The notes under the pieces are model-generated. The model was not told the origin of the DNA and did no database searches. It saw nothing but the letters and a program-made list of their open reading frames with translations. DNA of 64,000 nt, taken from contig CAVVHY010000033.1 in NCBI GenBank assembly GCA_963748135.1, positions 9,821-73,820 on the forward strand, written 5' to 3'. Position numbers and translations under genes: made by a program. This DNA is from an uncultured Gammaproteobacteria bacterium. GTDB lineage: Bacteria > Pseudomonadota > Gammaproteobacteria > JBGSLN01. Below are positions 7,339-7,488 of this stretch, one piece after another. The first letter of the stretch is position 1. Each line of letters starts with the position of its first letter.

Positions 7339-7488
7339 TAGTTTCCAGTTTCCAGTTTCCAGTTTCCAGTTTCCAGTTTCCAGTTTCCAGTTTCCAGTTT
7401 CCAGTTTCCAGTTTCCAGTTTCCAGTTTCCAGTTTCCAGTTTCCAGTTTCCAGTTTCTAGTTTCTAGTTTCTAGCTCCTAGTTCCTAC
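7339..7488. repeat. heptanucleotide tandem repeat array, about 21 units (CCAGTTT x ~18 then CTAGTTT x 3)
   Basis: Perfect 7-bp periodicity agtttcc/agtttct directly downstream of palindrome copy B. No spacers, so not a CRISPR. Confidence 0.9.

Follow-up and report, generated by a model that had tools for sequence, protein, structure and literature searches.

Heptanucleotide arrays joined to BoxC/TM palindromes in the Dot/Icm region of an uncultured gammaproteobacterium: probable slippage-expanded tails of a MITE-like repeat element

Introduction

BoxC/TM motifs and heptanucleotide arrays are both widespread repeats of bacterial genomes. In this study, we describe the two joined together in a 64,000-nt stretch of contig CAVVHY010000033.1 (the window, meaning the whole stretch at its full length) from an uncultured gammaproteobacterium that carries genes of the Dot/Icm (type IVB) secretion system. 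The window contains five copies of a palindrome with a BoxC/TM core, three of which are followed by arrays of a 7-nt unit of the form CYAGTYT. The arrays are probably, at a rough probability of 0.6, slippage-expanded tails of a lineage-specific repeat element that has a BoxC/PIT/TM core and resembles the miniature inverted-repeat transposable elements known as MITEs.

The palindromic component was named BoxC first, then PIT (potential intrastrand triplex), and then TM (PMC4666352), and over 260 bacterial genomes contain it besides that of Escherichia coli (Holder et al. 2015, PMC4666352). A TM has three consecutive blocks, the first of pyrimidines, the second its Watson-Crick purine complement, and the third rich in G, with loops of 1 to 6 nt; the third block can form G.G-C, A.A-T, and T.A-T triplets antiparallel to the purine block. 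The layout in E. coli is CCCTCTCCC - loop - GGGAGAGGG - linker - GGGTGAGGG, and TM loci are rearranged significantly more than control sites between E. coli strains (Holder et al., PMC4666352). According to the summary of earlier BoxC/PIT work given there, which cites Bachellier as well as Hoyne and Maher, PIT elements block DNA polymerase in vitro and have no promoter or terminator activity in E. coli. The copies in the window share the three-block core, the intergenic position, the frequent arrangement as inverted pairs, and the association with local rearrangement; two of them bound a 4.4-kb insertion in dotDCB. They differ in their longer G and C runs (11 triplets) and in a flank that has TTTCTAAA and an expanded CTAGTYT tract. 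Such a heptamer tail has not been described for BoxC/TM and was found in less than 1% of the TM motifs among the matches listed in our searches.

Near-perfect, head-to-tail, intergenic heptamers like those of the window constitute the 7-nt class of long simple sequence repeats (LSSRs; Mrazek 2007, as summarised in PMC4679880). In the Legionellales, the loci ms23 and ms24 of Coxiella burnetii are proven 7-bp variable-number tandem repeats (VNTRs); ms24 has 27 units in Nine Mile, and its alleles have 7 to 13 and 27 units (PMC1488860). The arrays described here resemble ms23 and ms24 as near-perfect, intergenic heptamer arrays of about 20 units in the Legionellales, although polymorphism is known for the Coxiella loci and the window represents one strain. 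In the Beggiatoaceae, intergenic heptamer repeats have the unit TAACTGA, the reverse complement of TCAGTTA (PMC4679880). The arrays of the window are physically coupled to a palindromic element and have a conserved distal tail in common.

Heterocystous cyanobacteria carry STRR (short tandemly repeated repetitive) sequences with the units CCCCAGT, TTGGTCA, and CAACAGT, and CCCCAGT, the STRR1 unit, is a rotation of CCAGTCC. The STRR and Beggiatoaceae repeats resemble the present ones in a (C/T)AGT-type core but have other unit sequences and other hosts. Membership of the cyanobacterial STRR family was rejected; the units here are CCAGTTT and CTAGTCT/CTAGTCC, and the host has Dot/Icm genes. Transposon tails that seed microsatellites occur in eukaryotes.

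Bacterial MITEs and foldback elements, such as QMITE1/2 of Coxiella (described in the abstract of PMC5896051), are small, non-coding, multi-copy, and bounded by terminal inverted repeats, as is the element of the window, which likewise folds back on itself, sits at gene ends, and gives rise to a microsatellite. By that abstract's description, the QMITEs differ from it in size and in their GTAG REP (repetitive extragenic palindromic) core. Both components of the locus are of known kinds. What is new is their physical union in one element with a reconstructible microsatellite birth, the array length of 19 to 22 units against a typical 3 to 7 among the matches listed, and the placement of the arrays beside type IVB secretion operons, at their edges, one of these operons being a split dotDCB.

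Heptanucleotide arrays and their coupling to the palindromes

Five palindrome copies were confirmed in the 64-kb window, together with a sixth, vestigial end at 46471-46500. The features of the element are as follows.

3252-3455, unstranded: palindrome copy 1, two inverted BoxC/TM motifs with 39-nt arms, 100% complementary
7184-7296, unstranded: palindrome copy 2, two inverted BoxC/TM motifs forming a hairpin with perfect 46-bp arms
7297-7337, plus strand: linker from palindrome copy 2 to array 1, with proto-unit TCTCTAGTTTGT and with TATAATCC at 7330-7337
7338-7470, plus strand: core of array 1, CTAGTTT, 16 CCAGTTT, and two CTAGTTT (19 units; Tandem Repeats Finder, unit map, and fold)
7471-7491, plus strand: decayed distal units of array 1, CTAGCTC, CTAGTTC, and CTACTTC (unit map)
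about 28340-28385, unstranded: palindrome copy 3, left arm partial and right TM arm complete, no array
40538-40593, unstranded: palindrome copy 4, a single collapsed hairpin with 24-nt arms (right arm confirmed by Logan contig L247)
40594-40637, plus strand: linker AAATATAATC followed by the five-unit remnant array (Tandem Repeats Finder, unit map, and Logan contig L247)
46471-46500, minus strand: left inverted end with the unexpanded tail AGGGGCTCTAAATT-CTAGTCT-CTAGCACCT, abutting the stop codon of gene 45650-46468
46501-46764, unstranded: middle part of the foldback element, which contains nested hairpins and has no second copy in the window
46765-46804, unstranded: palindrome copy 5, a half copy (46765-46800) with the variant TM CCTCAGCCCC-TT-GGGGCTGAGG-GGAGGGTGAGGGG, plus the junction CTCTAAATT
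46805-46958, plus strand: core of array 2, 22 units, CTAGTCT (18) and CTAGTCC (4), in blocks (Tandem Repeats Finder and unit map)
46959-46979, plus strand: decayed distal units of array 2, CTAGCAC, CTAGTTC, and CTAGTAA (unit map)

Tandem Repeats Finder reports array 1 with period 7 at 7340-7471 (18.9 copies, 99% matches) and array 2 with period 7 at 46804-46962 (22.7 copies, 96% matches), while the remnant at 40601-40634 is reported as a short, impure tract with a 14-nt period. Read in register, array 1 (7338-7491) has 22 units, namely CTAGTTT, 16 CCAGTTT, two CTAGTTT, CTAGCTC, CTAGTTC, and CTACTTC. Array 2 (46798-46979) has 26 units in total, of which 22 are CTAGTCT or CTAGTCC and the rest are decayed ends; the order is CTAAATT, four CTAGTCT, three CTAGTCC, two CTAGTCT, CTAGTCC, and ten CTAGTCT, followed by CTAGTCC, CTAGTCT, CTAGCAC, CTAGTTC, and CTAGTAA. 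The five units of the remnant (40603-40637) are CTAGTCT, CTAGTTC, CTAGTCT, CCAGTCA, and CTAGATG. These maps agree well with a first-pass annotation of the sequence, which had counted about 21 CCAGTTT-type units at 7339-7488 (a fair estimate) and, correctly, about 26 CTAGTCT-type units at 46794-46976, and had placed an array remnant near 40603-40634. Both long arrays are head-to-tail repeats of a short unit with a length far beyond chance, a trait of long simple repeats and of VNTRs, the latter also being defined by copy numbers that differ between strains or within populations. When up to 2 mismatches are allowed, the two-unit pattern CYAGTYTCYAGTYT matches the window 50 times compared with 3.0 ± 1.8 times in shuffled sequences, and all of these matches lie at the three array loci or their junctions except for 5 isolated matches with 2 mismatches. 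The core of array 1 is predicted to be unpaired when single-stranded and is open in all six frames; translation of the core of array 2 gives TAG stops in all six frames, as in any (CTAGTCT)n.

The distances from the palindrome end to the first unit of the three arrays are 41, 9, and 4 bp, which bears out the earlier observation that three palindrome copies have arrays within about 5 to 45 bp. In all three cases, the palindrome end next to the array is the GGTGAGGGG(G)(T)TTCTAAA end, and the units read away from it. If 10 element ends are assumed in 64 kb, the chance that three arrays would each lie within 50 bp of an end is, by simple arithmetic, (10 x 50/64000)^3, or about 5e-7.

The tails also share sequence outside the expanded units. 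The 17-mer CTAGCNCCTAGTTCCTA ends both long arrays (7471-7487 and 46959-46975), and these are its only exact matches in the window, where 0.26 matches would be expected even with up to 3 mismatches allowed; the remnant array also contains CTAGTTCCTA. At two copies, the one near dotC (7330-7337) and the one near icmT (40597-40604), TATAATCC stands directly before the first unit. At the third site, 46476-46500 (CTAGAGACTAGAATTTAGAGCCCCT) is a perfect 25-nt reverse complement of the junction 46791-46815 and holds only 1 or 2 units, and 46471-46495 pairs at 84% with the far array end 46943-46967. The foldback unit 46471-46967 is accordingly symmetric, with a left tail of 1 or 2 units and a right tail of 22 units, and it is predicted to fold on itself with -86 kcal/mol (z -13). 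It shows the structure of a MITE in being small and non-coding and having a 25-nt terminal inverted repeat; the elements of the window are 56 to 500 bp long and present in five copies. Because 46476-46500 is an unexpanded inverted copy, the heptamer is part of the terminal inverted repeat of the element and was expanded later on one arm. The tails thus appear homologous, not created independently. The composite of a palindrome head and a heptamer tail that the first-pass annotation had proposed is supported by the same side and orientation in 3/3 cases, the shared 17-mer, TATAATCC, and the inverted copy of the junction.

Copies 1 and 2 have about 30 nt of left flank in common in the alignment, and copy 1 has about 100 nt more in its central loop than copy 2 (a 103-column alignment gap). 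Its right flank has no array but a single degenerate unit, TCATAGTTCT, where copy 2 has the proto-unit. The region of copy 2 (7170-7500) is predicted to fold as DNA with -66.4 kcal/mol (z -11.9), the array itself being unstructured. No further copies of the foldback interior or of the linker sequences were found within the window. The interior contains nested inverted repeats at 46579-46614/46645-46680 and 46653-46678/46691-46716.

Identity of the palindrome

By its block structure, the palindrome core, CCCTCTCCCCC-TT-GGGGGAGAGGG-GA-GGGTGAGGGGG, is the known BoxC/PIT/TM intrastrand-triplex motif. It is identical to E. coli TM_ECO #5 at 33/38 positions, and comparison with TM_ECO #1, 2, 5, and 17 (Table 1 of PMC4666352) gives 29 to 33 identical positions among the 38 columns of the alignment. 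Its pyrimidine and purine blocks complement each other exactly, and 11/11 triplets satisfy the purine-motif rule. As in other genomes, the motif is intergenic and multi-copy, with five intergenic copies in the window, two of which (3252 and 7184) are inverted pairs, or "tandem inverted" TMs in the term of PMC4666352. The exact 22-mer GGGAGAGGGGAGGGTGAGGGGG was found on at least 120 metagenome contigs with a GC content of 0.38 to 0.71, and the looser TM pattern GGGAGAGGGNNNGGGTGAGGGG on at least 120 IMG/VR contigs. Because both are so widespread, the palindrome head is a known pan-bacterial motif. No gathering-level Rfam match was obtained in the window, with only noise at E <= 1 in 46400-47000.

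Two side observations concern the motif itself. Among the metagenome matches listed, the TM lies inside at least two distinct MITE-like scaffolds with long inverted repeats of their own, ...CTAATACAAACGCATTAAAT...TM...ATTTAATGCGTTTGTATTAG and ...GCATAAATAATGGAACG...TM...TGTTCCATTACTTTTGCGAAGC (L137, L162, L204, and L211; L149, L213, L224, and L230), and on these contigs the TM core behaves as a module carried by different elements. The TM arm GGGGGAGAGGGGAGGGTGAGGGGG (7265-7287) and the other TM arms fit the canonical G-quadruplex pattern of four runs of three or more G with loops of 1 to 3 nt; a G-quadruplex was ruled out by Holder et al. for the shorter E. coli motif (PMC4666352), and the G-runs in the window are longer.

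Distribution of the arrays and of the composite element

To place the locus among other genomes, one genome per species was scanned for (CYAGTYT)3, and all counts in this section refer to the matches listed. The CYAGTYT arrays come from a wide range of phyla, among them Acidobacteriota, Chloroflexota, Desulfobacterales, Omnitrophota, Planctomycetota, Bacteroidota, Patescibacteria, and one cyanobacterium. Most have 3 to 7 units, and only 3/114 reach 12 units or more. An array in inverted orientation lies within 300 bp in 39/114 cases, compared with about 5% per side in controls. Such inverted pairs form "heptamer hairpins" in about a third of the arrays (e.g., L006, L015, L017, L043, L098, and L121). 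Two IMG/VR contigs, IMGVR_UViG_3300022725_000337 (L394/L395) and IMGVR_UViG_3300023199_000265 (L390/L405), stand out by their local density, each containing 7 to 9 separate CYAGTYT arrays within about 20 kb.

The combination with a palindrome is rare. A full TM lies within 150 nt of 2/184 CYAGTYT arrays, 52 of which come from IMG/VR, and these two are L022 and L392. Conversely, an array of at least 3 units lies within about 120 nt of the TM in 0/198 metagenome motifs and 2/167 IMG/VR motifs, against a control rate of 0.13% per window, and the composite pattern of TM plus array gave no match in IMG/VR. L022, an Omnitrophota metagenome-assembled genome (MAG), has heptamers on both sides of the TM in inverted orientation, which is the architecture of 46471-46967. 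In L392, the TM is followed by (AAACTGG)3, in the opposite orientation to the arrays of the window, and in L363 a TM is adjacent to three copies of CTGACCC. The nearest relatives of the host (L122-L125; DotB about 80% identical), although distant, have neither the palindrome motif nor a heptamer array in about 48 kb, and inclusion of L001 extends this to about 52 kb. On these comparisons, the attachment of arrays to the TM characterises the element family of this lineage, and parallels in other lineages are rare.

Origin of the arrays

The expansion of the arrays by slipped-strand mispairing, as the first-pass annotation had suggested, is the natural reading of the 16 identical units of array 1 and the block pattern of the variants in array 2; the slippage signature consists of these identical units, of CTAGTCC in blocks, and of decayed units at the edges. 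The ancestral flank at the G-rich end of the TM had the form ...GGTGAGGGGGTTTCTAAA-(linker, TATAATCC)-CTAGTYT-CTAGCNC-CTAGTTC-CTA, that is, one or a few CTAGTYT proto-units. Composite copies became dispersed among several intergenic positions in the Dot/Icm region, and at 46471-46967 they form the two inverted ends of a foldback, MITE-like unit of about 500 bp. Slippage at two sites presumably enlarged the proto-units to about 19 and about 22, homogenising them to CCAGTTT at one and to CTAGTCT/CTAGTCC at the other, and the tract at the third site, now the remnant, probably stayed short and decayed. The adjacent hairpin or triplex may favour polymerase stalling and slippage, but it would be insufficient alone, because more than 99% of the TM motifs elsewhere, among the matches listed, have no array. 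The arrays themselves are most likely selfish or neutral DNA.

On this account, the history of the locus can be read from a seed unit, an unexpanded mirror copy, two differently homogenised expansions, and one decayed tail. It may serve as a test case for the birth of bacterial microsatellites from dispersed repeats and for whether a polymerase-blocking structure promotes 7-nt slippage.

Several observations weigh against the derivation of the arrays from one composite element. Neither copy-number instability nor mobility is seen directly in the one assembled sequence considered, and the basis is 64 kb of one genome with five copies and three tails. The proximal linkers differ (41, 9, and 4 nt), and the 46787 copy has no TATAATCC. 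No flanking direct repeat was recognised by eye as a target-site duplication. The rare pairs of TM and heptamers in unrelated lineages (L022, L392, and L363) could mean a recurrent structural cause, and the copy numbers of perfect 112- to 160-bp arrays in a metagenome assembly may be inaccurate.

Gene context and possible effects on expression

The genes of the Dot/Icm system that adjoin the elements are as follows.

2698-3186, plus strand: dotD (NCBIfam NF033882 T4SS_lipo_DotD, E 7.8e-43)
7557-8519, plus strand: dotC (Pfam PF16932 T4SS_TraI, E 1.1e-78; orthologues in L122-L125)
8516-9664: dotB
40765-41037: icmT (NF038220)

The host encodes a Dot/Icm system and is therefore Legionellales-like. 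Its DotB is 100% identical to that of one NCBI/ENA contig and 95% identical to the next, from a Logan contig; the remaining matches, from uncultured Gammaproteobacteria and MAGs of Legionellaceae, are at most 81% identical. With these DotB values beyond the 100% and 95% matches, and with a palindrome of the BoxC/TM type, identification of the locus as Coxiella burnetii with QMITE was rejected, as was a plasmid origin, for which there was no megablast match. The nearest relative by DNA, in run SRR28397367, is 79% identical over dotC to BCCT, and its contig starts inside dotC. Exact-protein look-ups gave no record for DotC, with either of two start codons, or for DotB, and only DotD and IcmT led to Logan contigs, which belong to run ERR11523667. 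No DotD homologue closer than 61% was found when the dotD-dotC junction of the relative with 95% DotB identity was sought.

The genes dotD, dotC, and dotB follow one another directly in the three nearest relatives, where 4, 53, and 29 bp separate dotD from dotC; in the window, dotD and dotC are 4.37 kb apart (3187-7556). The insertion is bounded on the left by the palindrome 3252-3455 and on the right by the palindrome 7184-7296 with array 1. It contains open reading frames for an FAD-oxidoreductase-like protein (3889-5346), a PAS/histidine kinase (5355-6269), and a weakly receiver-like protein (6217-7086); the GC content is 0.38 in 4001-8000 compared with about 0.42 in the window overall. For Dot/Icm biology, this split of dotDCB may matter more than the arrays.

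Array 1 ends 68 to 74 bp before dotC, and the remnant array lies 127 bp upstream of icmT. A 5'-leader position of these two tracts is possible from their placement. Since dotC is no longer directly behind dotD, its transcription would have to come from read-through over the palindrome and array or from a promoter that escaped recognition, and on both routes the array would serve as a spacer or leader that varies in length. If dotC/dotB or icmT are affected at all, this would be through the length of the spacer or 5' leader, not through coding sequence. The promoter scan found no sigma-70 consensus promoter downstream of 7083 in 7000-7650 or next to icmT, and promoter and terminator scans found nothing at the array or the palindrome. 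A hand-picked candidate, TTGACT-17-TTCAAT at 7505-7533, was rejected by the scan. Control of dotCB by the array, which the first-pass annotation had raised, is possible but unsupported.

None of the arrays is part of a reading frame, and array 2 is located 3' of the stop codon of each neighbouring gene. The first-pass annotation had proposed that copy-number change in array 2 could alter the C-terminus of the product of 46966-48933, which is wrong. That gene is on the minus strand, with its TAG (46966-46968) in the decayed distal units of the array; because the whole repetitive tract is downstream of this stop codon, the C-terminus is unaffected by copy number. What the tail of array 2 contributes to the gene is no more than the stop codon and, possibly, a few final codons (...GGFTRN*). 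Both convergent genes, 45650-46468 and 46966-48933, end in heptamer-like units (...GED* in AGACTAG and ...FTRN* in CTAGTTC), so the element supplies or overlies both stop codons. The 655-aa product of 46966-48933 is an orphan, with only a 6%-coverage match among 5.8 billion proteins, and it may be a lineage-specific secreted effector.

Alternative explanations

The arrays could have arisen separately at each site, with the TM hairpin or triplex stalling the replisome and producing repeats from whatever sequence was adjacent, in which case the tails would not be homologous. The block to DNA polymerase in vitro and the link of TMs with variable flanks in E. coli (both as summarised in PMC4666352) are consistent with such a process, as are the unrelated contigs in which the heptamers next to a TM have different units (CTGACCC three times in L363, AAACTGG three times in L392, and L022) and the position of the three arrays of the window on the same side (plus, G-rich, probably leading-strand). 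On the other hand, an identical 17-nt distal tail and a shared TATAATCC are hard to obtain twice, the inverted copy at 46476-46500 shows that the unit predates expansion, and more than 99% of the TM motifs among the matches listed, as well as most TM ends in the window, have no array. We therefore regard separate origins as unlikely. In a further proposal, the TM and heptamer arms are a distinct mobile foldback element whose terminal inverted repeats are built of 7-mers, an architecture also seen in L022; in this lineage, it would have invaded the Dot/Icm loci and split dotD from dotCB, and its TM would drive heptamer expansion and contraction and so give a length-tunable leader to dotC/dotB and icmT. 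Taken as a whole, this chain of events seems improbable.

A regulatory function is quite unlikely. The tracts would be tunable cis-acting sequences that control dotC-dotB and icmT expression through their length, whether as a phase-variable contingency locus or as a multi-site platform for RNA or protein binding; array 1, transcribed from the minus strand, would have a GGA in each unit, similar to CsrA-binding motifs. In favour of this proposal, two of the three tails are directly upstream of, and co-oriented with, core type IVB genes, dotC has lost its place behind dotD and so needs new signals or read-through, inspection finds GGA in every unit of (AAACTGG)n, and intergenic heptamer repeats have been proposed as sites for post-transcriptional regulators in Beggiatoaceae (PMC4679880). 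However, no sigma-70-like promoter overlaps or follows array 1, the longest array (46805-46958) is flanked by the ends of two convergent genes and has no gene to control, the tract at icmT has decayed instead of being maintained, and PIT/BoxC elements lack promoter and terminator activity in E. coli as summarised in PMC4666352. It is highly improbable that the long arrays, or at least their lengths, are artefacts created when the metagenome was assembled across low-complexity sequence. An independent k-mer assembly of the same run (ERR11523667) does break at the palindrome, where Logan contig L246, 100% identical to window 1-3268, stops inside the first copy; perfect tracts of 112 to 160 bp are hard to size with short reads, and the neighbouring BCCT gene looks frameshifted. 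Logan contig L247 of that run is nevertheless 100% identical to 40558-42177 and reproduces the right TM arm, the junctions, the remnant array, and icmT base for base, and assembly collapse does not create ordered internal variants with conserved decayed edges, nor would two arrays with different units be expected to end in the same tail. The independent assembly covers the palindrome edge and the remnant array, not the copy number of the two long arrays. In practice, the arrays could be used as candidate VNTR markers in this uncultured lineage, with the caution that assemblies break or mis-size at such sites.

Other features of the window

The window contains no detectable tRNA or tmRNA genes. 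The 655-aa gene has about 11 copies of a 12-nt (4-codon) repeat at 48239-48369. Downstream of dotB, a BCCT gene is split into two open reading frames in different frames (9686-10366 and 10431-11081), and in the relatives (L001, L123, and L125) it is one intact gene of 444 to 466 aa; the split reflects a pseudogene or, alternatively, a frameshift that the assembly introduced. At 14338-14610, a 136-bp unit occurs twice with 96% identity and contains internal inverted repeats (14338-14369/14457-14488 and 14457-14505); this repeat family differs from the BoxC elements. A coding-type repeat is found at 55452-55909, with nested periods of 30, 60, 90, and 180 nt and the consensus GGTTTTACAGCCGCACAATTAAAGGCTGCC..., and corresponds to a 10-residue repeat protein.

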